A stretch of DNA of 64,000 nucleotides from a bacterium. Its GTDB lineage: Bacteria; Patescibacteriota; Andersenbacteria; UBA10190. This document shows positions 5,757-55,361 of this stretch, piece by piece; the stretch's first letter is position 1; the number at the start of each line of letters is the position of its first letter. The DNA lies in the NCBI GenBank assembly GCA_030698495.1, contig JAUYKA010000035.1:8778-72777 (forward strand). Reading direction: 5' to 3'. The notes beneath the pieces were generated by a model. That model was not told where the DNA came from, did not search any database, and saw nothing but the letters and a program-made list of their open reading frames with translations. A program made the position numbers and the translations under genes.

Positions 5757-5940
5757 ATTATATCTATATCAAATCAATAATTAATACTAATTGTAAACCG
5801 TCGTCTGTTTTTTTGCACGCCCAGTTGCCGCTATAAAGAAGGGCTAAGGACTAATTAAGATAAAATTTATCTATAAGCCAGACACCCAGTAAACAAAACA
5901 CAACATCACAAGAATAAGTATTGTATAGCCGGGCAAACCC

Positions 5941-21847: not shown

Positions 21848-23278
21848 CTAGTCCTCAATCACATCCTGATCAACCGTATCCGGCAGTGGCTGCAAACCCA
21901 GCAGTCTCTCGATTAACTCCTGCGCTTCATCCTCGCTAAAAGCGTGAAATACCACTTCAAACCGATTCTTGTCCGATTTGAACATGACTCGCGCGTTATA
22001 ACCGAACTTATCCTGCAGCATCCCGTCGTATTTAAGCGCTAACTGCGGCCGCCCTCTGGTTTTCTTACGCAGCGGATCATTCAACTTCATTGTCCGCTGA
22101 ACACGACGCGCTCGGTTTTCCGCTTTGCGCACCGTTAACCCCTCATCCACCACATGATTATAGAACCGTATCTGTTTCTCTTCATCCGGAATCATCAATA
22201 TCGCCCGCGCGTGCCCGATAGAAATCTTGCTCTCAATCAAACCCCGCTGGATCTCCGCCGGCAGCTGTAGCAAACGGATAATATTAGTTATTCCTACCCG
22301 GCTGCGCCCCACTCGTTCGCCTATTTCCTCATGTGTCATACCGTATTCCTCGTTCAACCTCTGATAACCCATCGCCTCTTCCACTGGGTTTAAATTCTGT
22401 CTCTGCACGTTTTCCGTCAGAGCCAGCTCCAGCCGATGACGATCGGACGATACATCGCTTCTGATAACACACGGCACTTTCTCCCAACCAAGCCTCTTTG
22501 ACGCCCGCCAGCGCCGTTCGCCGGCAACTAACTGATACATCTTCTGTCCCGGCATCTTAGCCACCACCAGCGGCTGCAACATACCGTGCTGATCCAACGA
22601 TTGCACCAAGTCTTCCAAATCCTCTTCGTCAAACGCGCGCCGCGGCTGCAGCGGATTAACCTCAATATCACCGATAGTAATGTACTCCACCTTCTCACCC
22701 AATACGCGCCGCTCGCCCACTGCCGCCAAATCGTCAAACGCCGCCGCTACTTTTTCTTTAACTGTTTTTTTAGGCTCTGTTTGCTCTTCTTCCTTATTAG
22801 CTTTAACCCGCTTTTCTGCTTTAAGTGGTTCAACTTTTTCCGCCGCTATCGTTTCTTTGGCTTCCTCCGCTTCACTCTCCTTATCTTCATCCGTCTCGTT
22901 ATCTGCTTCAGCCAAAATTTCTTTATCCTTCTCATCCGGCTCTACTTCTATAGTTAATGGTGTCACCATCGGTTTAGCCGGCATCGGCTCCGGCACCGTC
23001 TCTTCTATCACATCAGCCTCCATTTCCTCTACCACTTGCACTTTTTTCTTCTCTACTTTAACCGGCTCCTCCTCAACCCCTACCGTTTCCTGCCACTGAA
23101 TCTCATCCGTATTTTCTTCCTCAATATCTTCCTCAACTTCATCGCCGCGCAAAGCCCTCACATTCTCCGGCTCATCCCCAACCGCCTCCATACTGTCTAT
23201 TTGTTCAATAATATCTTCGGCATTTTCCTTATGTCGTCTGGGTATTAATGAGGCCAAGCCTCGTCCTAATGGTGTCAT
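21848..23278 (-). CDS. parB: Chromosome partitioning protein ParB with a roughly 170 aa acidic low-complexity insertion after the N-terminal ParA-interaction peptide
   Basis: The N-terminus LGRGLASLIPRR is present. The ParB box GERRWRASKRLG is present. An HTH and a C-terminal dimerisation region are present. The protein is 476 aa, against a typical length of about 300. Confidence 0.85.
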   Translation of the reverse strand: MTPLGRGLASLIPRRHKENAEDIIEQIDSMEAVGDEPENVRALRGDEVEEDIEEENTDEIQWQETVGVEEEPVKVEKKKVQVVEEMEADVIEETVPEPMPAKPMVTPLTIEVEPDEKDKEILAEADNETDEDKESEAEEAKETIAAEKVEPLKAEKRVKANKEEEQTEPKKTVKEKVAAAFDDLAAVGERRVLGEKVEYITIGDIEVNPLQPRRAFDEEDLEDLVQSLDQHGMLQPLVVAKMPGQKMYQLVAGERRWRASKRLGWEKVPCVIRSDVSSDRHRLELALTENVQRQNLNPVEEAMGYQRLNEEYGMTHEEIGERVGRSRVGITNIIRLLQLPAEIQRGLIESKISIGHARAILMIPDEEKQIRFYNHVVDEGLTVRKAENRARRVQRTMKLNDPLRKKTRGRPQLALKYDGMLQDKFGYNARVMFKSDKNRFEVVFHAFSEDEAQELIERLLGLQPLPDTVDQDVIED

Positions 23279-24039
23279 AGATATAAATTTAATAATTCTT
23301 CTGACAAATACTCGTAAGCTTTGGCGCCCCGAGAATCTTTAGCATACTCCAAAATCGTCCGTCCCGTTGACGGCGCTTCCGCCAGCTCCGTATTTCGAGG
23401 AATAACACTGTCAAACACATGCCCGGGAAAAGTCTTACGCACTTCTTTCACTACCCGCCGCGCCAGCGCTGTGCGCCGATCGTACATCGTCAGCACCGCT
23501 CCCAGCACTTGTATCTGTGGGTTAAGATGCTTTCGTACCATGTCTACCGTATTCAACAACTGCCGTAATCCTTCCAGCGCGTAATACTCACACTGCACCG
23601 GAATTAATACCCGGTGCGCCGCTGCCAAAGCATTTACTGTTAACAAACCCAAGCTGGGCGGACAATCAACTAATATAAAATCAAAACTGGGCGCTAAATC
23701 CTTCAATGCCCGGCGCAATCGATATTCCCGGTACGGCTGATCCATTAATTCAATTGCCGCGCCCACCAAATCAGGCGTCGCCGGAATCACATTCAAATTT
23801 TCCTGCGTCGTCGCCTGCAACGCTTCTCTGGTCTGTTTTTCTCCTAACAAAACTTCATAAACCGTCGGTGCGCCATCCGCTACCTTCACGCCCAAACCGG
23901 CCGTGGCGTTTCCCTGCGGATCCATATCCACCACTGCCGTCGCCTTGCCGGAATTGGCCAAGTAGCCACCCAAATTAACGCTGGTCGTGGTCTTACCCAC
24001 ACCGCCCTTCTGATTTACAACCGCGATTACTTCTGTCAT
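23275..24039 (-). CDS. parA: Chromosome partitioning ATPase ParA/Soj
   Basis: The deviant Walker A KGGVGKTT is present. It overlaps parB by 4 nt (ATGA). Confidence 0.9.
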   Translation of the reverse strand: MTEVIAVVNQKGGVGKTTTSVNLGGYLANSGKATAVVDMDPQGNATAGLGVKVADGAPTVYEVLLGEKQTREALQATTQENLNVIPATPDLVGAAIELMDQPYREYRLRRALKDLAPSFDFILVDCPPSLGLLTVNALAAAHRVLIPVQCEYYALEGLRQLLNTVDMVRKHLNPQIQVLGAVLTMYDRRTALARRVVKEVRKTFPGHVFDSVIPRNTELAEAPSTGRTILEYAKDSRGAKAYEYLSEELLNLYL

Positions 24040-24138: not shown

Positions 24139-24225
24139 GCCGGGATGGCGGAATTGGTTTACGCGCACGACTCAAAATCGTGTGAGCTTACGCTCGTGTG
24201 GGTTCGAGTCCCACTCCCGGCACCA
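24139..24225 (+). tRNA. tRNA-Leu (anticodon CAA), type II with a long variable arm and an encoded CCA
   Basis: The acceptor stem GCCGGGA/TCCCGGC is present. The anticodon loop is cuCAAaa. The T-arm GGTTCGAGTCC is present. A possible TTGGCA-17-TACAGT promoter lies just upstream. Confidence 0.9.
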
Positions 24226-27550: not shown

Positions 27551-27634
27551 AGCAGTAAATACAGTGAATACAGTAAATTAAGTAAATACAGTTACTGTAT
27601 TTACTGTACTCGCTGTATTTACTTTATTTACTGA
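27551..27634. repeat. Inverted array of GTAAATACAG/CTGTATTTAC tandem repeats forming a hairpin with about 40 bp arms between convergent ugd and the nucleotidyltransferase gene
   Basis: agtaaatacagtgaatacagtaaattaagtaaatacag is followed by its imperfect reverse complement ctgtatttactgtactcgctgtatttactttatttactg. Confidence 0.7.
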
Positions 27635-28311: not shown

Positions 28312-28317
28312 AGCTTT

Positions 28318-28436
28318 GTATTTAGTATTTAGTATTCCGTATATAGTATATTACAAAAATGTTGTCCACAAGAGTTATGACAAAAAAATCAACGATGCTA
28401 AATACTATATACAAAATACGAAATACTAAATACTAG
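28318..28436. repeat. Large inverted repeat with about 35 bp arms built from TATTTAG heptamers and a 44 nt spacer
   Basis: gtatttagtatttagtattccgtatatagtatatt pairs with agtatttagtatttcgtattttgtatatagtatttagc (the reverse complement of 28397-28436). It lies between the FG-GAP protein stop and the nucleotidyltransferase start. Confidence 0.7.
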
Positions 28437-32020: not shown

Positions 32021-34444
32021 CTACTTCACCACAAAATTAATGAGCTTATTCGGTACAAATATAACTTTCACAATTTGCTTCCCCTCTAAATACTTACCTA
32101 CATTCTCTACCTGCCACGCTTGCTCTTCAATTACTGTCTTAGCCGCACCTACGACCACCTCCAGCGTCCCGCGCAAACGTCCGTTCACCTGCACCGGAAT
32201 CGTAATCGCCGCCTGCTTTAAAACACGCTCGTCAAACACCGGCCACTCTTCCCGCAAAACCGAGGTTTTATGACCAAGATATTGCCATAACTCCTCCGTC
32301 AGATGCGGCGCGTAAGGGCTAAGCAATAAAACAAATCGTTCCAACACTCCACGCGGCACCGGCACGCTTTTTTCCAGTTCGTTCAGCATCTCCATTAAAG
32401 CCGCGATGGCCGTATTAAAGCTGAATTTCTCCGTGCTCTCTGAAACTCGTTTTATCGTCTGCTGTGTCAGTGTTTCCAGTTCTTTATTTCCAACACCGTC
32501 AGCTATCGAACTTCCTTTTACTACCCCCCACACCCGTTTCAAAAACCGCTGCGCCCCGGCAATACTTGCCGTACTCCACATGCCCGACCCGTCAAACGGT
32601 CCCATAAACATCTCGTAAATGCGCAGCGTATCGGCGCCATATTTGGCCACCACATCATCAGGATTAATTACATTTCCCCGCGACTTGCTCATCTTTTGTC
32701 CATCCTCTCCGATTACCAAACCCACATTGCGCAAACGTAAAAAAGGTTCCCTAAAAGAGAGCGCTCCGGCATCGGCCAGCACCTTAGTCCAAAAGCGCGC
32801 GTACAAAAGATGCAACACCGCGTGTTCCGCTCCGCCGATATACAAATCAACCGGCAACCAGCGCTTAAGCGCTTCCGGACCCGCTAGCGCTTCTTTATTG
32901 TTCGGATCAACATAGCGCAGGAAATACCAGGAAGAACCGGCCCATTGCGGCATAGTGTTGGTTTCCCTCTTGCCCATGCCCGAGCAAGTAGGACACCTTA
33001 CGTTTACCCAATCATCAATTTGCGCCAGGGGAGACTCACCCGTTCCCGTCGGTTCGTATTTTTCCACCTCCGGCAATTTAACCGGCAGCTGGTCTTCCGG
33101 CACCGGCACCGCGCCGCATTTGTCGCAATGAATAATCGGAATTGGCTCTCCCCAGTAACGCTGTCGGGAGAACACCCAGTCGCGCAAACTATACGTAACC
33201 ATCCGCTTGCCGTAACCGTTTTGCTGCATGTAATCTTTCATTCTTTCCGTCGCGTCATGAATATTCATTCCGTCCAAAAATCCGGAATTAATCATTTTCC
33301 CCTCGTCTTCCTGCACCTGCTCAATTCTCTCAATTTCAGACGCATCATCATCCGCCGCTACCACCACCCGGATAATGGGCAATTCAAATTTTTTCGCGAA
33401 TTCAAAATCACGCTTATCATGCCCCGGCACTCCCACCACCGCCCCCGTGCCAAAATGTCCAATCACAAAATCAGATATCCACACCGGCATCTCCCGCTTT
33501 GTCAGCTGATTAACGACGTAGTATCCGGTAAACACACCTGTTTTATCGCGTCCCTCTTCCATTCTCTCTCGCTCCGTTTTATGAGCCGCACGATCAATAT
33601 AATCCGCCACCTCTTTATTCTTTTTTGCCAACTGCCCAGCAATTTTGTGCTCTGGCGCCAGCACCACAAACGTCGCGCCGAAATTGGTGTCCGGCCGCGT
33701 CGTAAAACACGTAATTGTCTCGTCAGTTCCTTTAATCTTGTAAGTAATATTTATTCCTTCTTTGCGCCCGATCCAATTTCTTTGTGATTCCATAATAAAC
33801 TTCGGCCACTCCAAACCGCCCAAATCATTTAACAGCTGATCGGCGTAACGCGTAATTCGCAACAGCCATTGGCGCATCGGCTTCTGTACCACCGGCGTGC
33901 CGCACCGCTCGCACTTGCCATCCACCACTTCCTCGTTAGCTAAACCTGTTTTATCCTTCGGACACCAATTTATCGGCACTGTCGCCTCATACGCCAGACC
34001 AAGCTTGTAAAGCTGTAGAAAAATCCACTGCGTCCACTTGTAGTATTCCGGATCCGTCGTGTTTACTTCCCGATCCCAGTCATATAACAAACCGACCCGT
34101 CGCATCTGCTGGCGGAACCGATCAATGTTTTTCTCCGTCAGCTTGGCCGGATGCACACCGTACTTTATTGCCGAGTTCTCCGTCGGCAACCCGAAGGCGT
34201 CCCAACCGGTCGGATGTAATACGGCAAACCCTTTCATCCGCAAATACCTGGCCACTACATCCGAAGCGGTATAAATCTTCACATGTCCCACGTGCAAGCC
34301 ATCTCCCGAAGGATAAGGAAACATATCCAGCACATACCGCTTCTTCTTCACCGGATCCGTATCGGTTTGATATAATTTCTCATCCAGCCAAAATTTCTGC
34401 CACTTCGGTTCAATTTCCTGTGGTTTATATTCGTCTGTCGCCAT
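32021..34444 (-). CDS. leuS: Leucyl-tRNA synthetase
   Basis: The HIGH-type motif (HVGH) and KMSKS are present. The LeuRS editing and anticodon-binding regions are present. The protein is 807 aa. Confidence 0.95.
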   Translation of the reverse strand: MATDEYKPQEIEPKWQKFWLDEKLYQTDTDPVKKKRYVLDMFPYPSGDGLHVGHVKIYTASDVVARYLRMKGFAVLHPTGWDAFGLPTENSAIKYGVHPAKLTEKNIDRFRQQMRRVGLLYDWDREVNTTDPEYYKWTQWIFLQLYKLGLAYEATVPINWCPKDKTGLANEEVVDGKCERCGTPVVQKPMRQWLLRITRYADQLLNDLGGLEWPKFIMESQRNWIGRKEGINITYKIKGTDETITCFTTRPDTNFGATFVVLAPEHKIAGQLAKKNKEVADYIDRAAHKTERERMEEGRDKTGVFTGYYVVNQLTKREMPVWISDFVIGHFGTGAVVGVPGHDKRDFEFAKKFELPIIRVVVAADDDASEIERIEQVQEDEGKMINSGFLDGMNIHDATERMKDYMQQNGYGKRMVTYSLRDWVFSRQRYWGEPIPIIHCDKCGAVPVPEDQLPVKLPEVEKYEPTGTGESPLAQIDDWVNVRCPTCSGMGKRETNTMPQWAGSSWYFLRYVDPNNKEALAGPEALKRWLPVDLYIGGAEHAVLHLLYARFWTKVLADAGALSFREPFLRLRNVGLVIGEDGQKMSKSRGNVINPDDVVAKYGADTLRIYEMFMGPFDGSGMWSTASIAGAQRFLKRVWGVVKGSSIADGVGNKELETLTQQTIKRVSESTEKFSFNTAIAALMEMLNELEKSVPVPRGVLERFVLLLSPYAPHLTEELWQYLGHKTSVLREEWPVFDERVLKQAAITIPVQVNGRLRGTLEVVVGAAKTVIEEQAWQVENVGKYLEGKQIVKVIFVPNKLINFVVK

Positions 34445-34512
34445 GTTTATAGCCTAAATCCAACCCACCCAAATTACCAGACAAGTCAACCAACATTATT
34501 GCTTTTTCATAA

Positions 34513-34676
34513 GCGAGAGGCACTTTTCGCGGCACCTACTTCCGGCAACGCACTTGCCCCGTCCAGCGACGGGACTGCGCTCGACTAAAAGCCTGCCGCT
34601 CCGCCTTTTAAGGCGGAGACCATGCCGGCAAGCTTTTAGACGGTTGCCGGAAGTAGGCACCGCGAGTGCCGCTCGC
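34513..34676. repeat. Palindromic element copy C. It is inverted relative to copies A and B.
   Basis: Its reverse complement aligns with copy A through ccgtct(a/g)aa(a/g)gcttg(c/t)cggcatggtc(t/c)ccgcc ... gtcgagcgcag(t/c)ccg...gggcaagtg. The outer imperfect stem is gcgagaggcac...gtgccgctcgc. Confidence 0.7.
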
Positions 34677-34746
34677 CACGAAAGTCCATGTAGAATAGGC
34701 TAACAATAGCCATTCTATCCTGATGAAACTCATATTAAGTTTTGTC

Positions 34747-34782
34747 ATTCCGGAATTTTGCCAAGGGCAAAATATCCGGAAT
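34747..34782. repeat. Short hairpin related to the element core (attccggaattttgcc-aag-ggcaaaatatccggaat)
   Basis: It has the same X-TTTTGCC-n-GGCAAAA-X' architecture as the central hairpin of copies A and B. Confidence 0.5.
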
Positions 34783-34818
34783 CCAAGCGGAAATTCAACG
34801 CTCTAGTATAACGCACCA

Positions 34819-34997
34819 GCAAGCGACGCCACGACTTTTGCTCTTGGCGACCGTCTGAAGGCTTGTCGGCATGGTCCCCGCCGTTATTTTGCCGCGGCAA
34901 AATAACGGCGGGGCGACAAAACTTCAGTCGAGCGCAGCCCGCCCGCAGGGGGCGGGCAAGTGTGTCGTCCAAGAGTGAAAGTTGTGGCGCCGCTTGC
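34819..34997. repeat. Palindromic element copy A (179 nt), ending 12 nt from the rarA stop
   Basis: The roughly 33 bp imperfect outer stem has G-T/T-G wobbles. The core is gaccgtctgaagg...ggtccccgcc-gttattttgccgcggcaaaataac-ggcgggg...cttcagtcgagcgcag-cccgcccgcagggggcgggc-aagtgtgtcg. Confidence 0.75.
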
Positions 34998-35008
34998 TAA
35001 TTAAAATT

Positions 35009-36331
35009 TTACTTACCCCCGTGTAACATTTTCCGCGCCTCGTCAACGCGCCTTTTAACTTCCTTCTCAAACCCGTCACTGCCCGGTTCATAATAAATAT
35101 GCTCTTGAATACTTCCCGGCCGATATTTCTGCTCCACCACATGTCCGGCAAAATCATGCGGATACTTGTATCCAACTCCTTTGCCAAATTGCTTCATCCC
35201 TTCTATCGGTGCATTTGTAATATGTCCCGGCGGCGCGTCATTGCCGTGTAAACGCACATCATCCTTTGCCGCTTCCTTCGCCCTATACACACTATTGCTC
35301 TTCGGCGCCGCCGACAAATACACCGCCGTCTGCGCCAACGCAAACTCCGCTTCCGGCAGTCCCACCCACTTCAGCGCCTGACTGGCCGCCGCCGCCAGCA
35401 TCAGCGCGTGCGGATCCGCATTGCCTATGTCTTCCGACGCAAAAATCATCATTCGCCTGATGATGAACTTAGGATCTTCCCCTGCCAGCAACATCCGAAA
35501 CAGATAAAACAGCGCCGCGTCCGGATCCGACCCCCGCATACTTTTTATAAACGCCGAAATAGTATCGTAATGCGCGTCGCCTTTCTTGTCATACTGCACC
35601 ACTGACGCTTGCGCCGCCGATTCCACCTCTTCCCGCGTAATCGCTTTCTTCGACCTCGTTTTGCTTGAACCTCTGGCCAACACCATCCGCTCCAGAATAT
35701 TAAGCGCCCGCCGCGCGTCCCCACCCGCCAACTCCACGAGCGTCTTTCTGGCTTCCACTGACAGCTTCTCCTTTCCGGCTAAACCGTTTTCCTCATCCCG
35801 CAACGCTCGATCGATAATTTTCCCTATCGCTTCCTGATCGTGCGGTTCCAATTTAACCACTTCCGCGCGACTTACCAGTGCCGCGATAACTTCAAAATAT
35901 GGATTTTCCGTCGTCGCCCCTATCATCGTCACCACGCCTTCTTCCACCGCCGGCAGCAGCACATCCTGTTGCGCTTTATTAAACCGATGTATTTCATCCA
36001 CAATCAGAATCGTTCTCGTATTCATTTTGCGCCACTCTTGCGCCCGGCTTATCACTTCCCGTAATTCTTTCACACCAGCCGCCACCGCACTGATCCGCTC
36101 CACTTTCGCCGACATCACATTGGCAATTAAAAAAGCCAGGCTCGTTTTTCCTACTCCGGGCGGCCCCCATAAGATAAGTGATCCAACAAGGCCTTGTTCT
36201 ATTGAGCGCCTTAAAGCCGAATCATGCCCCAAAACTTTATTTTGCCCCACATACTCATCCAAATTTCGCGGACGCATTCTTGCCGCCAGCGGCACGTAAG
36301 ACTGGCTTATTTTGCTTTTAGTTCGTGGCAT
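35009..36331 (-). CDS. rarA: Replication-associated recombination protein A (RarA/MgsA AAA+ ATPase)
   Basis: Walker A ILWGPPGVGKTSLA is present. Walker B ILIVDEIHRFNK is present. The MgsA C-terminal domain is present. Confidence 0.85.
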   Translation of the reverse strand: MPRTKSKISQSYVPLAARMRPRNLDEYVGQNKVLGHDSALRRSIEQGLVGSLILWGPPGVGKTSLAFLIANVMSAKVERISAVAAGVKELREVISRAQEWRKMNTRTILIVDEIHRFNKAQQDVLLPAVEEGVVTMIGATTENPYFEVIAALVSRAEVVKLEPHDQEAIGKIIDRALRDEENGLAGKEKLSVEARKTLVELAGGDARRALNILERMVLARGSSKTRSKKAITREEVESAAQASVVQYDKKGDAHYDTISAFIKSMRGSDPDAALFYLFRMLLAGEDPKFIIRRMMIFASEDIGNADPHALMLAAAASQALKWVGLPEAEFALAQTAVYLSAAPKSNSVYRAKEAAKDDVRLHGNDAPPGHITNAPIEGMKQFGKGVGYKYPHDFAGHVVEQKYRPGSIQEHIYYEPGSDGFEKEVKRRVDEARKMLHGGK

Positions 36332-36385
36332 ACTTTTCAGTGTACCCCAAAACAGCCGTTCTCACACCGGAATTTTACACCTCGC

Positions 36386-36538
36386 CTAATCCAGTAAACT
36401 CTCCAGTGATGCCTGAATATAACCGTGTAATGGTGTCGCGTAAAGCAAACCCAGCGCCCCTAAAAACACGGCTATTAATATTGCCAGCAAAAGCAGCACC
36501 TTCCGCTGCGCCACCTGTTGCCAATAATCCTTAACCAT
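36386..36538 (-). CDS. Candidate small single-TM protein of 50 aa (MVKDYWQQVAQRKVLLLLAILIAVFLGALGLLYATPLHGYIQASLESLLD), not in the ORF track because it is shorter than 60 aa
   Basis: The frame is open from ATG 36536-36538 to the TAG at 36386-36388. It lies 54 nt upstream of the rarA start on the same strand. It has a hydrophobic core and a weak RBS. Confidence 0.3.
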   Translation of the reverse strand: MVKDYWQQVAQRKVLLLLAILIAVFLGALGLLYATPLHGYIQASLESLLD

Positions 36539-36699
36539 ACTATAACTATCCTCCAAATTTTCTTTTCAATCAAACTGCAACCATATTTTTATTACCACCA
36601 ATCAATTTGTGGTAATATGCGCCAGGTTGTACTTTTCAATCTTTTAATGTATTACTTTTACAAGTTGGTTCCCTTACAAATTTATGGGGAGGGTTTAAA

Positions 36700-37119
36700 A
36701 TGGATCGCTCGCCTTTTGACAAACAAAACCGGATAATATCCAGTTGGTCACTGCCCGTTCCTGCCACTGCAACCGAATGCAATCGATTAATCCGTTACAT
36801 CCTACAGGGTAACGGTACCGATTCTGGTCACATAGGCGACCATGTTCGCCTATCCCGGAAATATCATCAACGATGGGTCGGCACACGCGTTAGAATCAAA
36901 AGGAGAAAAGGAAGACGCTACAGTGGTAGACAAGGCACCGTCATCGCCCTTCAGGCTAGAACCGCCGACGAAGTTGAACAAGCTCGGCTTACTTGCCGCC
37001 GCCACACCCCGCACCCCTTCAAAGCCCTCGTGCATCTTGAGGGAATAACAAAACCCGTTACCATATCTCTTTCCCTCCTGCTCCTGGTCGAACGCCAAGA
37101 ACAGCGCACCTTGTTCTAA
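36700..37119 (+). CDS. Hypothetical 139 aa protein with a KOW-like basic segment (GTRVRIKRRKGRRYSGRQGTV)
   Basis: The ATG is preceded by a GGGGAGGG Shine-Dalgarno at an 8 nt spacing. The upstream inverted repeat attaccac/gtggtaat overlaps a TAATAT -10-like hexamer. Confidence 0.5.
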   Translation: MDRSPFDKQNRIISSWSLPVPATATECNRLIRYILQGNGTDSGHIGDHVRLSRKYHQRWVGTRVRIKRRKGRRYSGRQGTVIALQARTADEVEQARLTCRRHTPHPFKALVHLEGITKPVTISLSLLLLVERQEQRTLF

Positions 37120-37132
37120 AAGCGCCTCCCAC

Positions 37133-37156
37133 TAGCCCACCCGGGCTAGTTTTCTT
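37133..37156 (+). terminator. Intrinsic terminator
   Basis: ctagccc-acc-gggctag is followed by ttttctt. Confidence 0.6.
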
Positions 37157-37227
37157 ACTTAAAAAAACAAACCCGAACAATATCAAGGATTATCCTTTAA
37201 AATGCCTTGATACGGCTTATGAACACT

Positions 37228-41013: not shown

Positions 41014-41137
41014 TTAATTTTCAATTTTCAATTTCCATTGAATTATCAATGACGCAATTTTCAAACACTAAAACTTTTCATCGTTGTGCTTGGAAATTGA
41101 TAATTGATTATTATATGGAAATTGGAAATTGGAAATT
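41014..41137. repeat. GGAAATTG-family repeat arrays in both orientations. These are aattttcaattttcaatttcc at 41014-41036 and ggaaattg at 41092, then three tandem ggaaatt units at 41117-41137 that overlap the glyQS stop codon.
   Basis: Seen directly in sequence. It fills the glyQS-M16 peptidase intergenic region. ORF-track entry 41104-41328 over it is judged spurious. Confidence 0.7.
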
Positions 41138-42518
41138 ATATCGACAGTTTATCTGTTAAATATCCACCAACCTTGTCTATATTAATCCTCTCCTGCTCCA
41201 TACTATCCCTCTCTCTCACTGTCACCTGCTTATCTTCCAAGGAGTCAAAATCAACCGTTACGCAATACGGCGTGCCAATTTCATCCTGGCGCCGATACCG
41301 CTTGCCGATTGATTGCGTCTCATCGTAATCAACGCGCAGACTTTTTGCCAATTCATCAGCCAACGGCTCGGCCAGCTTTATAAGTTCCGGCTTCTTCGAC
41401 AAAGGCAGTACTGCCACCTGATACGGCGCCAAATTTGGTTTCAGCTTTAGCACTACCCGCTTATCTCCCTTAACTTCTTCCTCGTAGTAAGCATCCATCA
41501 ACACAAATAATACCAGCCGCGACAAACCGAATGTCGGTTCAATCACATGCGGATAAAATTTTTCTCCCGTTTTTGTATCCGTCACCTGCAGATCCTGACC
41601 CGTAGCCTGCGCGTGATTCTTCAAATCGTAATCGGCACGATAAGCCAGCCCGAACATTTCTTTACTGCCCCAAGACGACGCATACTCAATATCCACCGTC
41701 CGTCTGGAATAATGCGCCCGTTCTTCAGTCGCCTGCTCCCGCAAACGCAAGTTTTCTTTTTTGATCCCCACTTCCTCCGTCACCCATTTTTGCATCTCCC
41801 CAAGCCACATCTCAAAATACTTCTCCCAATCAGCTTCTCTCACAAAATACTCAAACTCCATCAAATCGAACTCCAGCGTGCGGAAAATAAAATTACCCGG
41901 CGTGATTTCATTGCGAAACGCCTTGCCGACTTGCGCTATGCCAAACGGTAAGGATTTCCGCATTGAATCCATAATCAATTTAAAATCTACAAACATCGAT
42001 TGCGCCAGCTCCCCCCGCAAATAAACAATCTGTTTATTACTTTCAACCGTTCCCAACGAAGTCTCAAACAGTAAGTTGAATTGACGCGCTTCGGTAAAAT
42101 CATGTTTACCACAATTCGGACAGACAATATTGTTATCAGCGCTAATTAAAACGGACATTTCCTCTATCGTCATCGCGTCCGTATTCCTATCAGGCAATAT
42201 GTTCTTTATCAGATCGTCCGCCCGCCAGCGATTATGGCAGGACTTACAATCCACCATCGGGTCGTTAAAATTATCAACGTGATGCGAAGCTTTCCACACT
42301 TCCGGATTCATTAAAATCGCCGCGTCCAAACCAACCATATCCCGCCGGCTCTCCACAAAATACTTCCACCAGGCATCCCGCAAATTATTTTTTAACTGCA
42401 CTCCCAACGGACCGAAATCCCACGAATTGCGCAACCCGCCGTAAATCGCCGACCCCGGATACACAAACCCGCGTCTTTTGCATAACTCAACTATTTTTTC
42501 CAGAGAAACTTTTTCCAT
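41136..42518 (-). CDS. glyQS: Glycyl-tRNA synthetase, single-chain (alpha2) type
   Basis: The N-terminus VELCKRRGFVYPGSAIYGG is present. Class II motifs are present. The protein is 460 aa. Confidence 0.9.
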   Translation of the reverse strand: MEKVSLEKIVELCKRRGFVYPGSAIYGGLRNSWDFGPLGVQLKNNLRDAWWKYFVESRRDMVGLDAAILMNPEVWKASHHVDNFNDPMVDCKSCHNRWRADDLIKNILPDRNTDAMTIEEMSVLISADNNIVCPNCGKHDFTEARQFNLLFETSLGTVESNKQIVYLRGELAQSMFVDFKLIMDSMRKSLPFGIAQVGKAFRNEITPGNFIFRTLEFDLMEFEYFVREADWEKYFEMWLGEMQKWVTEEVGIKKENLRLREQATEERAHYSRRTVDIEYASSWGSKEMFGLAYRADYDLKNHAQATGQDLQVTDTKTGEKFYPHVIEPTFGLSRLVLFVLMDAYYEEEVKGDKRVVLKLKPNLAPYQVAVLPLSKKPELIKLAEPLADELAKSLRVDYDETQSIGKRYRRQDEIGTPYCVTVDFDSLEDKQVTVRERDSMEQERINIDKVGGYLTDKLSI

Positions 42519-42586: not shown

Positions 42587-43012
42587 TCACCCCACCCCGC
42601 GCAGCCGCAACCTAATTACCTTAGTTCTGTCATTACGCGCCGCCCTCACTTGCTTCTCTGCTCGCAGCTGCTCCCGATGCAGCTTCTCCATTACCTTCTT
42701 CTGTGCCGCTTGAGGGTTGTTTTTTTGCTCATAAGACATTATTCCAAACTCCCGGTAAGTGCGATCCCGATCGCGCCTAAACCCCTGTTTTATCTCCCTC
42801 TCCCGCCGTTTAAAATCCGAGCGCACCCTCCCCAGCTCGCCCACATACCAATCCGACACCTGCCTCCTCTCCTTCCGCCACTGCTTCATGTACTCGCTCG
42901 TCCCCAAAAAACTCTGGATAAAATTTCCCTTATCCGGCGGCCGTACCGGCTGACCTCCCCAATCGTTTGGATTACTGAAACCTCCCGGATTTTGCTCCAT
43001 AAAACTCCCCAT
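42587..43012 (-). CDS. Hypothetical highly charged Arg/Lys/Glu-rich protein (141 aa)
   Basis: The frame is open. The sequence is low-complexity basic/acidic with no motif seen. Confidence 0.4.
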   Translation of the reverse strand: MGSFMEQNPGGFSNPNDWGGQPVRPPDKGNFIQSFLGTSEYMKQWRKERRQVSDWYVGELGRVRSDFKRREREIKQGFRRDRDRTYREFGIMSYEQKNNPQAAQKKVMEKLHREQLRAEKQVRAARNDRTKVIRLRLRGVG

Positions 43013-43111: not shown

Positions 43112-44269
43112 ATGTTTCACGGCATCGAACAAGCCTACGCCGGCGCTATGGTGACTGCCGCGCGTACCGCCCAGCAAACTCTGTTCGACACCCCCATTTG
43201 CGAGGCCATCCGGCCTTCCACGGTTTGGAACAAAGGTGACACGGAAAGCTTCGACACCATTCCGGAAAACGCGATTGTCGGAGTCTTGCGCCGTTTTGAC
43301 CCATATGCCGTCGTCGTCACCGAGGAACGTGGCGCTGCTAACCCCTTTCTAAGCGACGACCCGACCCAAAGCAAGGGAGCACGTACTTTCTGTGTCTGCG
43401 ACCCTTTCGACCGATCAAACCAGGCCAAACAATTTCTTACCCCTCTAGCCGCCAAAGGCGGAAAGATCGTTGACATCCTGCGCAACCCGGAAACCATCGC
43501 CAACTGGGAAAAAGACTTCGGTTCTCCCGCCTCCATCACCGGCTTCACTACAGGCATCACCTGCGTCCGTCGCGGCTTGCCTATTGCCAGCGTTATCTTG
43601 AATTACCTTACGGAAGAAGTAACCCTGGCCTGCGCCGCCGGCATCTTCCACGCCAAGCTGCCTGAAGATCTCTCGCATGATATCAACCTTGAATATATCA
43701 TGCAGCAGGGAAAACGCCTGGTCTTCCCTCAACCCAACCACTTTACCGTCCGCAACATCGTGTCATACATCGGTAAACCGGAGCGTGGCTACCCCAAGAA
43801 CTTCTCCAGTATCCGTCTGGTGCAGGATCACGAACTAGATCACCGCCTTTACTACAATCTGCCCGGCGGCCCCTCGCGTATTCTGTATCTCTCAAATCTG
43901 CAACCGGCCGAAGCCCCCATTGGCGCCGTTGTTGCCAACGGCGAGAAGATCGGAGAATGGACTTCGTGGCTTACCTTCATCCGCTTTGCTCTACGCGCAG
44001 ACGATCACAGTTCTCCGGCCTTACGCATCTTCGAAGCCTCACAAAAAGAAACGTTGTCCATAGACGGCATATTGATGATGCCTACGCCCGACTACAGCAT
44101 CTTCGTCAACCGCAACCCCGATTCCAACCGCGTCTATATCAGCGCCCAAAAGCTGCAGGATTTCACCAACCCCAGCAAATATCGCGCCACAATGATTGTG
44201 TTCCCCGCCAGCAGTCGTTGGGCCTTAAGTCTGGTGGAGCAGTACGGCTACCGCGAGATCGTCTTTTAG
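43112..44269 (+). CDS. Hypothetical 385 aa protein with weak resemblance to IMPase/FBPase/CysQ-superfamily phosphatases
   Basis: An AAGGAG Shine-Dalgarno lies 8 nt upstream. VVVTEERG and FCVCDPFDRS loosely match the EE and DPxDGT motifs, with Gly replaced by Arg, so the assignment is tentative. GC content is elevated and codons are C/G-ending. Confidence 0.45.
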   Translation: MFHGIEQAYAGAMVTAARTAQQTLFDTPICEAIRPSTVWNKGDTESFDTIPENAIVGVLRRFDPYAVVVTEERGAANPFLSDDPTQSKGARTFCVCDPFDRSNQAKQFLTPLAAKGGKIVDILRNPETIANWEKDFGSPASITGFTTGITCVRRGLPIASVILNYLTEEVTLACAAGIFHAKLPEDLSHDINLEYIMQQGKRLVFPQPNHFTVRNIVSYIGKPERGYPKNFSSIRLVQDHELDHRLYYNLPGGPSRILYLSNLQPAEAPIGAVVANGEKIGEWTSWLTFIRFALRADDHSSPALRIFEASQKETLSIDGILMMPTPDYSIFVNRNPDSNRVYISAQKLQDFTNPSKYRATMIVFPASSRWALSLVEQYGYREIVF

Positions 44270-44322
44270 CTCGACTAACCCGGCACCATTACCAGACTCG
44301 GCTAAACGATTCAACAACCCAA

Positions 44323-44351
44323 CCCCCCGCAAACCCAAGCGGGGGGTTTTC
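44323..44351 (+). terminator. Intrinsic terminator
   Basis: ccccccgc-aaacccaa-gcgggggg is followed by tttt. Confidence 0.7.
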
Positions 44352-44353
44352 AA

Positions 44354-44381
44354 TTGACATGGTAAATACGACTGCTAATAT
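44354..44381 (+). promoter_or_regulatory. sigma70-type promoter TTGACA-16-TAATAT for the purM-like gene
   Basis: The -35 lies at 44354-44359 and the -10 at 44376-44381. The 5'UTR is about 65 nt with an AAAGGA Shine-Dalgarno. Confidence 0.55.
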
Positions 44382-44450
44382 AAAAAACCAGGCGGGATCA
44401 AACCAACTGGCTGTTCTCTTCCCAATCTTTTTCTCGAAAGGACTGCTGTC

Positions 44451-45491
44451 ATGTCCCAAGCTTCAGCGTACGCGGCTAGCGGTGTTGACATCGACAAGGG
44501 CGCGCTTTTTGTCAAAATGGTCAAAGAACGAATCGCCAAAGCCTGGCCCGGCAGAGAAGACGCCATCGGCGGCTTCGCCGGCCTCCTACAACTAGCCACA
44601 CCAACCAGCATCCTCAAAACTTGCTGTGACGGCTCCGGCACCATCGCTATTCTCGGCGCGCTCACCGGCCGGTTTTCCCTGATCGGCCACAACGCCGCCG
44701 CCATGTCACTGGTTGACGCCTATGTCGCCAGCACCCACCCCGTGGGCCTGAATGACGTAATCGGCACCGGCAGTCTTGATCCGGAACGGCACATCGGGAT
44801 TATTGACGGCATTATTAATGCCTGTCAGTATTCCGAAGATTGCTTCATCGTCGGCGGCGAAACGGCTGAACAGCCCGGTATGTACAAGTATGACTGGATA
44901 GTGGACATCAACACTTTCGTTGTCGGCATACCCGACCCAGATATCGTTACCGGCAACGTTCAACCAGGACAACCCGTTTACGGCTGGCCTTCTTATGGTC
45001 CTGCCTCCAACGGTTTCTCGTTGATCCGCAACGTGTTCAACCTTAACACCGATCCGGAATCAGCCAGAGACACATTGAATCAACTTCCTCTCGATGGTGC
45101 TTGTTCTCTGGCCGATGCCCTGCTTGTACCAGCGCCAGTGTACATCAATCAGATCGAAGTGCAGCGCCGAACCGGCATCCGCTTTGCCGCCCATGCTCAC
45201 ATCACCGGCGGCGGATTGGTGGACAACATTCCGCGTGTACTGCCTGAAAACTGCAAAGTGGTTCTCGACCGCTCCGCCTGGCTGCGTCCGTCAATCTTCA
45301 AAGCTATCCAGGAAACCGGTCACATTACGCCTGCTGAAATGGATCGCGTCTTCAACCAGGGCATCATGGTCGCCTCCATTATTGACGGCAATGAGATGCC
45401 CGACAGCTGCAACGCCACGTGCATCGGCACTGTCGAACAGCGCCAAGGCAACGAACCCCAGGTTCAGTTCACCGGTTCCTTCAAACAGTAG
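44451..45491 (+). CDS. PurM-superfamily protein (AIR synthetase-like), divergent
   Basis: YAASGVDIDKG...GGFAGL...DGSGT matches the PurM N-domain. GGETAEQPGMY and HITGGGLVDNIPRVLPEN match the PurM C-domain. ThiL, HypE and SelD hallmarks are absent. Confidence 0.75.
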   Translation: MSQASAYAASGVDIDKGALFVKMVKERIAKAWPGREDAIGGFAGLLQLATPTSILKTCCDGSGTIAILGALTGRFSLIGHNAAAMSLVDAYVASTHPVGLNDVIGTGSLDPERHIGIIDGIINACQYSEDCFIVGGETAEQPGMYKYDWIVDINTFVVGIPDPDIVTGNVQPGQPVYGWPSYGPASNGFSLIRNVFNLNTDPESARDTLNQLPLDGACSLADALLVPAPVYINQIEVQRRTGIRFAAHAHITGGGLVDNIPRVLPENCKVVLDRSAWLRPSIFKAIQETGHITPAEMDRVFNQGIMVASIIDGNEMPDSCNATCIGTVEQRQGNEPQVQFTGSFKQ

Positions 45492-45505
45492 CCCCCCGAG
45501 CAACC

Positions 45506-45546
45506 CCGCGCGAGACCTCAAAAAGTCTCCGCGGGTTTTTCTTTTT
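45506..45546 (+). terminator. Intrinsic terminator
   Basis: ccgcgcgagac-ctcaaaaa-gtctccgcgg is followed by gtttttcttttt. Confidence 0.7.
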
Positions 45547-45571
45547 AAAAAACTCTAACCACCAGTCGTGC

Positions 45572-45600
45572 TTGACTTAACTGAATATTTCATCTATTAT
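45572..45600 (+). promoter_or_regulatory. sigma70-type promoter TTGACT-17-TATTAT for the NUDIX gene
   Basis: The -35 lies at 45572-45577 and the -10 at 45595-45600. An AAGAGG Shine-Dalgarno lies before ATG 45648. Confidence 0.55.
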
Positions 45601-45647
45601 TATCCACTCCTCTAAGACCGTACATTCTCAAACCAAAGAGGCTAATC

Positions 45648-46163
45648 ATGGCAATCATCAAACACACTTGGTGCGGTAAATTCGTTTCAGTTCGCGTAGA
45701 AGAACGTGGCTCCCAAACATTGGAAATAGTCCACGTCCGCAATGGTGTCACTGTTGTTCCTATTTTCCCAGACGGTCGCCTGTGTCTCATCCGCGAACGC
45801 AGCTGGAAGACCCAACAGATGGTAACAAAGCCGGTTACCGGATTTATCGACGACAATGAAAACCCCTGGGCAGCGGCGCGACGCGAGCTTGCCGAAGAAA
45901 TCGGCTTTGAAGCCGGCGAGTGGGAACTGGCTCTAACGTCAACCAAAAACGACGTGATTGAGCACCAGCAATTCTGTTTCGTATGCCACGACCTGACTGC
46001 CACATCCCCCCATCCGGAACCGGGGGAGTATATCGAGAAATTGGTTAAACTCACGCCGGCCGAAGTCCAACAACGCACTCTTGGCCTTGAGTTTGGCAGC
46101 AATATCACCGCGTTCTTTCTCCTTCGCCTAGCCACACAGCTTCTAGAAAATTCTGGCAAATAG
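45648..46163 (+). CDS. NUDIX hydrolase (ADP-ribose pyrophosphatase-like)
   Basis: The Nudix box GFIDDNENPWAAARRELAEEIGF fits Gx5Ex7REUxEExGU. Confidence 0.85.
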   Translation: MAIIKHTWCGKFVSVRVEERGSQTLEIVHVRNGVTVVPIFPDGRLCLIRERSWKTQQMVTKPVTGFIDDNENPWAAARRELAEEIGFEAGEWELALTSTKNDVIEHQQFCFVCHDLTATSPHPEPGEYIEKLVKLTPAEVQQRTLGLEFGSNITAFFLLRLATQLLENSGK

Positions 46164-47633: not shown

Positions 47634-48017
47634 TCAGTAATTGCGGCACTCGCGGGCCAGCACTTCCGCCCGTTCGTCTTCACCCAAGCCAGGCAACTGA
47701 TCATGCAGCCGGCACATCAGCGCGTGCAGCCTGGCACGCTTCTTCTGCCCAATCGTGTCGAGATTCAGAGCATCAGCCACTCGGTGAGCGTCGGTGAAGA
47801 TCTCCTGCATCAGACGCTCACTATACTCTCTCATCAGCCGACGCCTGACATACTCCAGGAACCTTTTCACCGAGTTGAACTCGCTGCCAGCGGAGAGCTG
47901 CTTCCTCATCCTCTTCTGCTGCTTACGCTTCTCGCTCTCCGCTTGTAGCTGCTCCCTGTCCCGCTGGCCGGCCGAAATCAGGCCTGCCACGAACAACTGA
48001 TCAGATAGAGTGCCCAC
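47634..48017 (-). CDS. Hypothetical helical protein (127 aa), GC-rich at about 58%
   Basis: The GTG start at 48015-48017 is preceded by an AAAGGAGG Shine-Dalgarno 5 nt upstream. The protein is charged and helical with no motif seen. Confidence 0.55.
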   Translation of the reverse strand: MGTLSDQLFVAGLISAGQRDREQLQAESEKRKQQKRMRKQLSAGSEFNSVKRFLEYVRRRLMREYSERLMQEIFTDAHRVADALNLDTIGQKKRARLHALMCRLHDQLPGLGEDERAEVLARECRNY

Positions 48018-49218: not shown

Positions 49219-49345
49219 CGAGTATCAACATTCTTGAAGAGTAAAAGGTAAAACCAAAAATGTAAAACAACAATGCAAAATTTAAAGTATCTTTTGCGTT
49301 TTGAGTTGTTGTTTTAAGTTTTTCGTTTGACCCTTTACGTTTTCG

Positions 49346-51367: not shown

Positions 51368-52105
51368 TTAAGTAGTTCGCACCATCGGCACCGTCTCGGC
51401 CACCACCATCGCATAATACCTCATCGCCGCCAGCACTTGTCTGCTTTCCTCCTTGGTCGCACTAAGCTGTAATGCCTTTTGCGGATACCTACCCAGCCAG
51501 CGCAGCGCGCGCAACAAACGCGGCGGCAGTGACAACTGCGTCCCCACAAAAGAATCGTGACACGACAAACATCGCCAACCTCCGGCTTGGGGATTCAATA
51601 TCACCGCTTCGTCCGGCTGGTTTCTGCCGCACGCTTGACACCGATTTAAATCCGGCTGCAAACCCGCACAACGTAGGGCATAACCGGCCACGGCTACCTC
51701 TAGAAAATCCCGCTTGGGCGCTGGCAACTCCGGAAACATCTGACAAGCATGATACAAAGCATCAAACAACTCCACCTGCACTTCTTCCTCTTCAAAAAGC
51801 CCCAAGACTAATCGTGCCAGCATCTCCGCGTGCTCCCACGCCTGCACATCACCGCGCAAAGCCAGATGATCATCCACCGTCTCCACCGCCGCCAGATATT
51901 TCCGGTCCGCCGTACCCGTTACAATCGCCAATACGTAAGTCAAAGGCTCCAAGTGCCCCCCACGCCGTGACGGTATCCGACGCACACCTTTAGCCAGCAC
52001 TCGCAGCAAACCTTGCTGCCGGGAAAACAGTGTCACCAGCCGATCCGCTTCATTAATGTCGCGACGCGCTAAAACCAGCGCGTGCAGCTTCTCCCGCTTA
52101 TTCAT
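51368..52105 (-). CDS. recO: DNA repair protein RecO
   Basis: The N-terminal OB-fold region LHALVLARRDINEADRLVTLFSRQQGLLRVLAKGVRR is present. A C4 zinc motif (CQACG...CLSC) is present. Confidence 0.8.
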   Translation of the reverse strand: MNKREKLHALVLARRDINEADRLVTLFSRQQGLLRVLAKGVRRIPSRRGGHLEPLTYVLAIVTGTADRKYLAAVETVDDHLALRGDVQAWEHAEMLARLVLGLFEEEEVQVELFDALYHACQMFPELPAPKRDFLEVAVAGYALRCAGLQPDLNRCQACGRNQPDEAVILNPQAGGWRCLSCHDSFVGTQLSLPPRLLRALRWLGRYPQKALQLSATKEESRQVLAAMRYYAMVVAETVPMVRTT

Positions 52106-52183
52106 TCATATATTATAGCACATACCCTCTCCACTCCCCGTCCTCTTTCCTCCTCCCGGAAGGGAATAAACTAACCTATGAGC

Positions 52184-52353
52184 AAAAATTTTCTAATCTT
52201 CTGCTCTTAGCGACCGTCTGAAGGACTGCCAGCCTGGTCCCCGCCTAAATTTTGCCGCGGCAAAATTTAGGCGGGGTGGCAGGCCTTCAGCCGAGTAACG
52301 CCCGCGCTGGGGCGGGCGTTATGTGTCGCTAAGAGCAGAAGATTAGAAAATTT
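52184..52353. repeat. Palindromic element copy B (170 nt), ending 6 nt from the ileS stop
   Basis: A perfect 29 bp outer stem (aaaaattttctaatcttctgctcttagcgac / gtcgctaagagcagaagattagaaaattt) encloses the same core as copy A. The core reads ccgtctgaagg..ggtccccgcc-taaattttgccgcggcaaaattta-ggcggggt..ccttcagccgag..cgcccgcgctggggcgggcg..gtgtcg. Confidence 0.75.
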
Positions 52354-55300: not shown

Positions 55301-55361
55301 CAAAATATGGTTTCTTTTGACCCATAACACTAAAGGTAAAATCCGGCTGAACAAAATGCAA
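52359..55361 (-). CDS. ileS: Isoleucyl-tRNA synthetase
   Basis: The HYGH (HIGH-type) motif is present. KLSKK (KMSKS) is present. The CP1 editing domain and a C-terminal zinc-binding region are present. The ORF-track start is a TTG and the true start is probably an internal Met. Confidence 0.95.
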   Translation of the reverse strand: MHFVQPDFTFSVMGQKKPYFDDVPPRMAADELEREILDYWDEKKIYARSLEQTARGKIYTFYDGPPYATGKPHYGHILQSAIKDTVLRYKTMQGYHVPRRVGWDCHGLPVETLVEKELGFKSKKDIEKYGIEKFNQKCRDTVFRYIDDFTTTLKRIGRWADYDQAYATLDRDYMESEWWAFKRLWEKELVYKDFRSTPYCIRCATPLSNFEVTSNYHDRTDTAVYVLLKVNGSSTRFARSESDGLYLAIWTTTPWTLPGNVAVAINPELEYVSVDYEGKEVVVAKQRIKAIFGEDLPVKKQWSGSELDGLTYEPLYNFSAVEGGYKVVYGGHVTGEDGTGLVHIATAFGEEDAELGKKLGLPVIRNVDSDGRFTDEVKPWAGEKIFAANDKVTDDLRERGLLLKAEQFTHSYPYCWRCDEPLIYYALDTWFIKVTDLKKRMLEINEQINWTPKHVKHGRFAKGIESAPDWAVSRNRFWSVPVPIWECDKCGERVCAGSLAELAELSGQKQLDDMHRPYVDEVTWSCTKGEGKMKRVEEVLDVWFDSAAMPYSQWHYPFANKEFVEKSFPADFIAESVEQTRAWFYVMHVLATALTKDDIGLGKDKPAYKNVIGSGLIFAEDGQKLSKKLKNYPEPEPTIAKYGADVLRFYLLAGTSLGEPYRFSEKEMQQVQRGFYLTLWNAYSFFVRYANTHDWQPGDQVTESSNILDKWIRARLVQLENEVVSAADDYQIDLAARAFTGFVDDLSNWYIRRSRGRFQRPASDKIRDEAFGTLHEVLVRCVRLLAAFMPFVTENIYRNLTKEESVHLSRLPVAVDFEKNKLELLEVMKQAREAVSAGLAIRAGHGIKVRQPLNKMMVMGVPPAEEIMNIIKEEVNVKNVEYAEKLPDSDEYAVSGEEGKVKLALDIVLTEELKEEGRAREIIRRGQVLRREAGYALDDRIKLVITTSSEKLRKTVESQKVLILDVLQADEVMENGSEDAGGDFKVDGEEMHIGVMKGDS

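Follow-up and report, generated by a model that had tools for sequence, protein, structure and literature searches.

A family of intergenic repeats in Candidatus Andersenbacteria predicted to fold into a Y-shaped three-way junction

The window analyzed here, a 64-kb stretch (64,000 nucleotides) of contig JAUYKA010000035.1 from a bacterium of Candidatus Andersenbacteria, contains three copies (A, B and C) of a non-coding repeat element that, together with a copy in the same species beyond the window (D) and a diverged copy in a relative (E), forms a real repeat family, undescribed in the resources we searched. The five copies measure 130-181 nt, occupy five different spacers in two genomes and, when folded as a single strand, are all predicted to adopt one Y-shaped three-way junction. 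We tentatively read the family, at somewhat less than an even chance, as a lineage-restricted, non-coding, non-autonomous insertion element that is recognized as a folded single strand through a bulged hairpin. Genomes of the Candidate Phyla Radiation (CPR; Patescibacteria) are small and tightly packed, and GC-rich insertions of ~170 nt are unexpected there.

Copies A and C share the 564-nt spacer between rarA (35009-36331, minus strand; MgsA/RarA domains) and leuS (32021-34444, minus), and copy B lies between ileS (52359-55361, minus; stop codon 52359-52361) and recO (51368-52105, minus; start at 52105); coordinates of the copies and their parts are collected in Table 1. The original prediction, made from the letters of this DNA, held that A and C are related and inverted relative to each other and that a third full copy, our copy B, lies 17 kb away, and all of this is borne out by sequence-model scores, motif recurrence and the shared fold. 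A hidden Markov model (HMM) of A, B and C matches the copies in the sense orientation with E values of 1e-43 to 1e-55, far beyond the palindromic antisense cross-matches (5e-4 to 2e-18), which places the sense strand of A and B on plus and that of C on minus. The motif GGCATGGTCYCCGCC has three matches in the window at up to two mismatches, where 0.24 are expected, the third of which led to copy B, and CTTYAGTCGAGCGCAG has two matches against 0.02 expected. The predicted core motifs thus recur far above chance, but two of them are inexact in C: CCGTCTRAAGG, ascribed to both copies, is replaced there by CCGTCTAAAAG, and TTTTAGTCGAGCGCAG occurs in C with one mismatch. Copy C lies 66 nt upstream of the leuS start, and the distance from the end of copy A to the rarA stop codon (35009-35011) is 10 nt rather than the 12 nt first reported, with rarA on the minus strand. 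The copies have a GC content of 54-64% against ~49% for the window.

The relatedness of the copies was tested independently outside the window, where the same model found copy D (L045:166-347; E = 1.9e-37) on a same-species contig that extends 7 kb past the window's left end. Copy D lies ~6.9 kb left of the window, begins 22 nt downstream of the ndk stop codon and has the same fold (-130 kcal/mol). The diverged copy E (L027:3318-3447, minus) begins 4 nt after the tgt stop codon on a 255-kb JGI contig from a relative whose RarA is 72% identical; it retains CGGCATGGTCTCCGCC-TTGG-GGCGGAGCG exactly as in C and keeps its lower and outer stems paired, while its hairpin 2 is degenerate. A covariance model built from A, D, B and C (R1) scores E at an E value of about 1e-3 and finds nothing in the window beyond the known copies, which brings the tally to at least four copies in ~79 kb of one species and one in 21 kb of L027, with none in L026 and L028, the other two relatives (42 kb together). 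Between copies, identity is 62-81% in the core and 39-68% in the distal outer stem. About 160 nt from copy E, L027 also carries a hairpin, GCTGAAGG-GGGCA-CCTTCAGTC (3605-3623), that resembles the lower stem of hairpin 1 (CTGAAGG...CCTTCAGTC) and may be a remnant or a coincidence.

The predicted fold opens with an outer stem in which about 29-36 positions are paired, with one 1x1 mismatch or small bulge among them; two C-G pairs, a U.U (or U.C) mismatch and a 14-bp stem come next. A bulge of 7 nt, confined to the 5' side and reading GCAUGGU or GCCUGGU (that is, GC(A/C)UGGU), adjoins a 7-bp GC stem, CYCCGCC/GGCGGRG, and a single junction A leads to a short GC hairpin 2. Copies A, B and D add a tip palindrome, (N4)TTTTGCCGCGGCAAAA(N4), whereas C reads CTCCGCC-TTAAAA-GGCGGAG at this position; the central palindrome originally assigned to the shared core is therefore a feature of A and B, imperfect in D and missing from C. 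Minimum free energies lie between -118 and -130 kcal/mol and, relative to dinucleotide shuffles, correspond to z-scores between -11 and -16. The module CGGC(A/C)UGGUC(Y)CCGCC-loop-GGCGG(R)GCG is near-invariant, also when the compared genomes have RarA proteins of only 72% identity, and the bulge, the U.U/U.C mismatch, the one-nucleotide junction and hairpin 2 are retained in all same-species copies, with the bulged hairpin kept in E as well. We rejected a pseudoknot between the bulge and the hairpin-2 loop, as the complementarity, read from the sequences, is present in D alone and inconsistent among copies.

Covariation supports this fold in two alignments, as the original prediction had proposed to check. 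On a plain MAFFT alignment RNAalifold predicts 56 pairs, of which 17 are changed on both sides. A second alignment, of A, D, B and C padded with N, was guided by the structure and, being fitted to it, leans towards it. Standard pairs fill 97.4% of its 265 pair cells, and 35 of its 70 pairs are changed on both sides; shuffles give 14.5 +/- 2.8 such pairs, none of 500 attaining the real count, and sliding the 3' partners by 1-3 columns leaves only 3-7. The earlier picture of outer stems that differ in sequence yet still pair is right about the pairing and overstated as to the difference: the outer stems of A, C and D can be aligned along their whole length and are therefore diverged homologues, not unrelated sequences, and just the distal 12 bp of B's outer stem, which are AT-rich, are unrelated to the other copies. 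We rejected an outer stem copied from the target, given the homology of the A, C and D stems and a B-less allele, described below, that retains an arm sequence shared with A and D.

The pairing is also asymmetric between the strands. The sense strand carries 16 G.U pairs and two A.C 1x1 mismatches; with shared G.U pairs counted once there are ~11 events against three (one-sided binomial p ~0.03, an estimate), and these strand and orientation statistics are weak because five copies are available. The claim that mismatches become G-U wobbles on the sense strand alone is accordingly softened to a bias that follows orientation, with two or three A.C exceptions. All five copies fold more stably as the sense than as the antisense strand, under RNA and DNA parameters alike, and the antisense strand folds too (-104 to -119 kcal/mol). 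The window has a strong GC skew (about -0.25), but strand-compositional bias cannot explain the G.U excess, because the excess tracks element orientation, minus-strand copy C included. The asymmetry supports a single-stranded functional form, whether RNA or single-stranded DNA; selection at the RNA level, as first suggested, is not established by it, since a single-stranded DNA hairpin would give the same asymmetry, and what stands of that suggestion is that one strand matters. The favored strand is opposite to the flanking genes in four of the five copies (A, B, D and E). Consensus scans found no sigma-70-like promoter at any copy and no intrinsic terminator at A, C or B, with one weak terminator site at D, inside its outer arm, and no U-tract follows the stems.

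Comparison with relatives indicates that the copies are insertions, since the orthologous spacers there span only 3-36 nt. Between rarA and leuS the window has 564 nt, whereas L028 has 36 nt and L027 just 3 nt; the spacer downstream of tgt, occupied by E in L027, is 73 nt long in the window and 4-17 nt long in relatives L026 and L028. Copies A, B, D and E each start 4-22 nt past a stop codon and C lies in the leuS leader, and proximity to stop codons is expected in any case because spacers of this lineage span few nucleotides. Two further contigs, L046 and L047, from the closest relatives by RarA (77-78% identity), carry no recognizable copy. Both of these contigs end ~90-100 nt past the rarA stop codon in GC-rich sequence that is not the element (L046 1727-1829; L047 2603-2690), and a different repeat may occupy the post-rarA site there.

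Other assemblies of the same species reveal a strain-level deletion at copy B and independently confirm parts of A, B and C. Proteins identical to those of the window occur in the metagenome-assembled genome GCA_034372665.1 and in the Logan assemblies of SRR26726065 and SRR13727534. Short-read contigs of the species match the window at 100% identity and stop inside or at the edges of the elements: L025 at the tip palindrome of A, L032-L034 at or within C, and L030 and L049 at the tip of B, one from each side. In GCA_034372665.1 (L029 and L048) the sequence is identical to the window on either side of B, and just a 25-nt right arm is left of the element, whereas in SRR13727534 the filled allele is seen from both sides. 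The deletion junction falls in a 10/12 direct repeat, CTATGAGCAAAA (52176-52187, outside the left arm) and CTAAGAGCAGAA (52329-52340, inside the right arm), with CTA on both sides; no comparable direct repeat flanks A, C, D or E. Because the retained arm holds CTTYTGYTCTTRG and its complement, which the arms of A and D also contain, we read the B-less allele as a palindrome-associated deletion rather than an ancestral empty site. Every short-read assembly of this organism is interrupted by the elements, each time at the same places, and strain-level deletions arise from them.

Searches for known families, relatives and partner genes returned nothing that accounts for the element. Rfam 15, run over the whole window at gathering thresholds, reported one tRNA only (24139-24222), and a permissive search of A/C, B and D (E up to 10) gave sub-threshold generic hairpins, miRNA precursors and Leu_leader at 29.9 against a 50-bit threshold; no Rfam family matches. 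In agreement with the original prediction, no transposase was present among the open reading frames (ORFs) scanned in the 64-kb window, nor was an integrase, HUH protein or reverse transcriptase, and the called genes of ~15 kb of same-species flanks include no mobilizing gene. The pattern CCGTCTNAARN(11)TGGTCNCCGCC matched 10 times among GTDB species genomes, 14 times among JGI metagenomes and never in IMG/VR; no match folds like the element or agrees with the HMM, a negative limited by the fact that this strict pattern would miss E-type copies. A second scan of viral sequences, with GCATGGTCYCCGCC-N(3-33)-GGCGGRG, gave 10 chance matches, blastn of copy A against annotated phages and plasmids gave no match, and the open frame of C, D and E found nothing in a set of 5.8 billion proteins. 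We found no account in the literature of such repeat families in CPR bacteria.

Several specific candidates were also set aside. A hammerhead ribozyme, suggested by a CUGANGA-like CUGAAG, was rejected as the motif reads CUAAAAG in C and D and the Rfam ribozyme models are silent. A T-box leader for leuS has no Rfam T-box match, and four of the five copies have the wrong strand for any downstream gene. A retron non-coding RNA, a diversity-generating retroelement hairpin, an attC site and a fragment of transfer-messenger RNA (tmRNA) were dismissed given the housekeeping neighbors, the lack of a nearby reverse transcriptase or integrase and the lack of an Rfam match.

Multiple copies at non-orthologous sites, the lack of terminal or target repeats, the invariant bulged hairpin, the covarying helices and the strand specificity are together best explained by the insertion element introduced above. 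Its active form would be the sense strand, DNA or RNA, folded as the Y-shaped junction, and the bulged GC hairpin would be recognized by a protein that acts in trans from a gene elsewhere in the genome. By holding the two ends close to each other, the long outer stem would let the unit be cut out and inserted without target duplication, which is how hairpin-recognizing single-strand transposases (IS200/IS605 TnpA, the REP-associated RAYT) or single-strand site-specific recombinases (attC) work. Once inserted, a copy would form a very stable hairpin or cruciform that interrupts short-read assembly and tends to be deleted, the B-less allele being an example, and it would probably uncouple neighboring genes that are contiguous in relatives. 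As intact hairpins sit between essential genes (rarA/leuS, ileS/recO and ndk), either an active mobilizing system or a use to the host is implied.

A number of observations weigh against this proposal. No partner enzyme was seen within the ~79 kb examined, and nothing indicates recent transposition, since no two copies are close in sequence; divergence with intact pairing could equally fit long upkeep in situ of a structure useful to the host. No empty site was seen in a near-identical strain, the B-less allele keeping part of a conserved arm, and no common motif adjoins the ends, unlike the tetra- or pentanucleotide of IS200/IS605. By GC skew, the favored strand is the leading-strand template in four of five copies, and IS608-type elements use the opposite strand, not the leading-strand template. 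Finally, the strict motif patterns did not recover the family from GTDB species genomes, JGI metagenomes or IMG/VR.

The copies could instead be sibling non-coding RNA genes expressed from the sense strand, whose junction and GC(A/C)UGGU bulge would bind a protein or an RNA such as the 3' ACCA of tRNA, an account we consider unlikely. It would explain why one strand favors G.U over A.C, why the energy advantage of that strand is greater with RNA than with DNA parameters, why covariation is strong in every helix and unpaired nucleotides of the bulge and junction are conserved, and why the copies are diverged but intact, as purifying selection on genes would leave them. Yet no Rfam model matches, T-box and tRNA-like models included, at E values up to 10; sigma-70-like promoters and intrinsic terminators are lacking at the copies, and in four of five cases the transcript would extend, in antisense, over a housekeeping gene's 3' end. 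The loci are moreover missing at the same positions in relatives, which would be unusual for a needed RNA, and perfect palindromes of 29-38 nt are more typical of processes at the DNA level.

The perfection of some stems, namely B's 29-bp outer stem and the 38-nt tips of A and B, recommends a similarly doubtful alternative, in which the copies are functionless palindromes that arose by an old insertion or inverted duplication and were homogenized arm to arm by intrastrand template switching or hairpin-directed repair. The window does hold other long, unique, AT-rich intergenic palindromes that relatives lack, to which B's distal stem is similar, and the B deletion allele is an event of the replication-slippage type. 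Arm-to-arm correction should, however, erase asymmetry, and the bulge, mismatch, junction and hairpin 2 have been retained; it also leaves unaccounted for both the orientation-linked tolerance of G.U on one strand and the homologous copies at five unrelated loci in two genomes.

It is very unlikely that the copies are cis-acting structures of mRNAs that protect 3' ends, are processed by RNase III or insulate operons, roles that have been reported for REP/BIME and for Correia elements. The positions of the copies just past stop codons or, for C, in the leuS leader would suit such roles, either strand folds very stably, the antisense strand included, and repeat families of this kind, REP/BIME-type repeats among them, are transcribed and can affect mRNA stability (PMC3184786). 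Against this, in A, B, D and E the mRNA would carry the less favored strand, which pairs worse and contains A.C mismatches, and there is no U-tract or other terminator-like tail after the stems, so that a 3'-end mRNA reading does not fit; a conserved asymmetric core would also be superfluous in a simple barrier hairpin. An assembly or amplification artefact is next to negligible: chimeric amplification is known to yield palindromes in the form of chimeric inverted repeats and all short-read contigs stop at the elements, but parts of them were recovered from three independent assemblies (SRR26726065, SRR13727534 and GCA_034372665.1), D is complete within one Logan contig, the diverged homologue E comes from a different genome and sample, and the asymmetric core is common to four loci.

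A bolder interpretation, which we regard as quite unlikely, is that CPR bacteria harbor in this family a new class of structured nucleic acid that propagates itself and is strand-specific, with the invariant bulged hairpin as the catalytic or recognition center for a mobilizing enzyme, or else an RNA whose UGGU bulge docks the ACCA 3' ends of tRNAs in the manner of a T-box antiterminator; neither version would need terminal repeats, target duplications or a linked gene. A partner enzyme, if found, could show how hairpin-recognizing mobile DNA works in this lineage, and if the active form is RNA, the family would be a new structured RNA class confined to Andersenbacteria.

Table 1. Copies of the element, their parts and nearby features, in window coordinates
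Feature	Position	Strand	Remarks
Copy A, full element	34818-34998	+	181 nt, 62% GC; covariance score 165 bits
Copy A 5' outer arm	34818-34851	+	
Copy A hairpin 1	34852-34930	+	
Copy A bulge GCATGGT	34869-34875	+	7 nt, invariant
Copy A conserved GC stem, 5' strand CCCCGCC	34876-34882	+	Partner GGCGGGG at 34907-34913
Copy A tip palindrome GTTATTTTGCCGCGGCAAAATAAC	34883-34906	+	End of hairpin 1; also in B and D, absent in C and E
Copy A junction A	34931	+	
Copy A hairpin 2	34932-34963	+	
Copy A 3' outer arm	34964-34998	+	
Copy C, full element, inverted	34510-34678	-	About 167-169 nt, 63% GC; 135 bits
Copy C bulge GCATGGT	34625-34619	-	Read on minus strand
Copy C stem CTCCGCC	34618-34612	-	Read on minus strand
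Copy B, full element	52186-52353	+	168 nt, 54% GC; 152 bits
Copy B outer stem	52186-52214 with 52325-52353		Perfect, 29 bp
Copy B bulge GCCTGGT	52232-52238	+	
Copy B hairpin-1 GC stem and tip	52239-52276	+	
Segment lost in GCA_034372665.1	52176-52328		153 nt; left flank repeat, B left arm and core
Short hairpin ATTCCGGAATTTTGCC-AAG-GGCAAAATATCCGGAAT	34747-34782		Lies in the C-A spacer (139 nt)
Second small hairpin GTAGAATAGGCTA-ACAA-TAGCCATTCTA	34690-34718		Same C-A spacer; sequence unrelated to the element

The first of the two small hairpins between C and A, originally described as a short relative of the element, is a real hairpin, but its kinship is not significant: it has just TTTTGCC/GGCAAAA in common with the tips of A, B and D, and nhmmer gives E values of 0.097 and 8.8. 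Elsewhere in the window, AT-rich imperfect palindromes of 80-130 nt with arms of 32-40 nt lie at 27553-27633, 28315-28435, 41015-41138 and 49241-49338; the four are built of short-period repeats, each unique in sequence and each intergenic, with folding energies of -30 to -47 kcal/mol. Long inverted repeats like these are almost absent from L026 and L027, and B's outer stem resembles them in its distal part. The four could be native terminators or the product of a second palindrome-generating process in the species.

Other features of the region are recorded here in their own right. Another insertion specific to the lineage is the tatD-rarA stretch (36332-37227, 896 nt), at a distance of 1.3 kb from copy A; it holds an ORF of 139 aa on the opposite strand (36700-37119, plus) with no Pfam or NCBIfam match, and the corresponding spacer is 7-18 nt in L026 and L027 and carries a different ORF, of 174 aa, in L028. 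Three ORFs of 139 aa (22680, 31578 and 36700) were considered as a family and rejected, being unrelated and of coincidentally equal length. GC skew is uniform across the window (about -0.15 to -0.33) and nearly all genes lie on the minus strand; the window includes parB (21848-23278) and parA (23275-24039), but the skew keeps one sign throughout. Within the minus-strand region, a plus-strand gene block (43112-45558) encodes a 385-aa protein without a Pfam or NCBIfam match and an AIR-synthase-related protein, and the neighboring small ORFs at 42587-43012, 45590-46159 and 47634-48017 have no family match. To the right of the window, the same-species contig L029 has 1.3 kb without called genes after smpB (4267-5567), possibly the site of the tmRNA gene, followed by an ORF of 87-92 aa (5568-5831) with a GIY-YIG domain only.

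Set beside known repeat systems, the element resembles several and belongs to none of those whose defining features we tested. Miniature inverted-repeat transposable elements (MITEs) carry conserved terminal inverted repeats and target-site duplications. In our element, by contrast, the termini are the least conserved part (39-68% identity) and the conserved part is an internal asymmetric core, with no target-site duplication or direct repeat at the stem ends of A, B, C, D or E, since the 10/12 repeat at B does not lie at the two ends, one of its copies being inside the right arm. Nor is there an IS among the ORFs scanned in the window. With neither conserved termini nor target-site duplications the element is not a MITE, and its initial description as the reverse of the classic architecture, variable arms around a conserved core, is confirmed. 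Repetitive extragenic palindromic (REP) sequences of Proteobacteria are simple hairpins of 20-40 nt, often preceded by GTAG, that occur in hundreds of copies, flank a RAYT gene and are thought to be recognized as hairpins by a trans-acting HUH (Y1) transposase. Our element shares with REPs, bacterial interspersed mosaic elements (BIMEs) and REPIN-RAYT systems the character of GC-rich, imperfect, intergenic palindromes without target-site duplication, and the A/C pair is like an inverted doublet; it differs in being a three-way junction of 130-180 nt with no GTAG or shared flank. Only a few copies were seen in the DNA covered, and no RAYT lies among the ORFs scanned in the window or the called genes of ~15 kb of same-species flanks. 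Palindrome-associated transposable elements (PATEs) derived from IS200/IS605, as well as attC sites, act as strand-specific single-strand hairpins with extrahelical bases, conserve structure more than sequence and make no target-site duplication. The single-strand, strand-specific reading of our hairpins and the lack of target-site duplication recall both, but no nucleotide motif is shared next to the copies (n = 5, a small sample), no R''/R' boxes (RYYYAAC/GTTRRRY) are present at the stem bases by reading, there is no cassette array, and the copies stand solitary or as an inverted pair between housekeeping genes with no intI, TnpA or TnpB nearby. As far as these features could be tested, the element is not a member of the REP/REPIN-RAYT or attC systems and probably not of IS200/IS605.

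The element does resemble MITEs such as Correia (Neisseria), ERIC (enterobacteria) and Chunjie (Geobacter) in being a small, non-coding, multi-copy intergenic repeat with very stable stem-loops, Chunjie having reported folding energies of about -98 to -130 kcal/mol, the same range as our element (PMC3184786). The original prediction, which likened the copies to REP/BIME- or Correia-like 3'-end elements, thus pointed to the right neighborhood, ERIC included, and is not supported in its 3'-end mRNA reading. The closest analogue is bcr1 of the Bacillus cereus group, a non-coding intergenic repeat of ~155 bp with a non-conserved distribution, 5-bp flanking direct repeats and a branched, cruciform-like fold kept by compensatory changes, which is transcribed (PMC3184786). 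Our element lacks flanking direct repeats, has no sequence similarity to bcr1 and comes from another phylum, but it matches bcr1 in its similar size, branched fold and compensatory changes, and it belongs broadly with the structured intergenic repeat families of which bcr1 is an example (PMC3184786).

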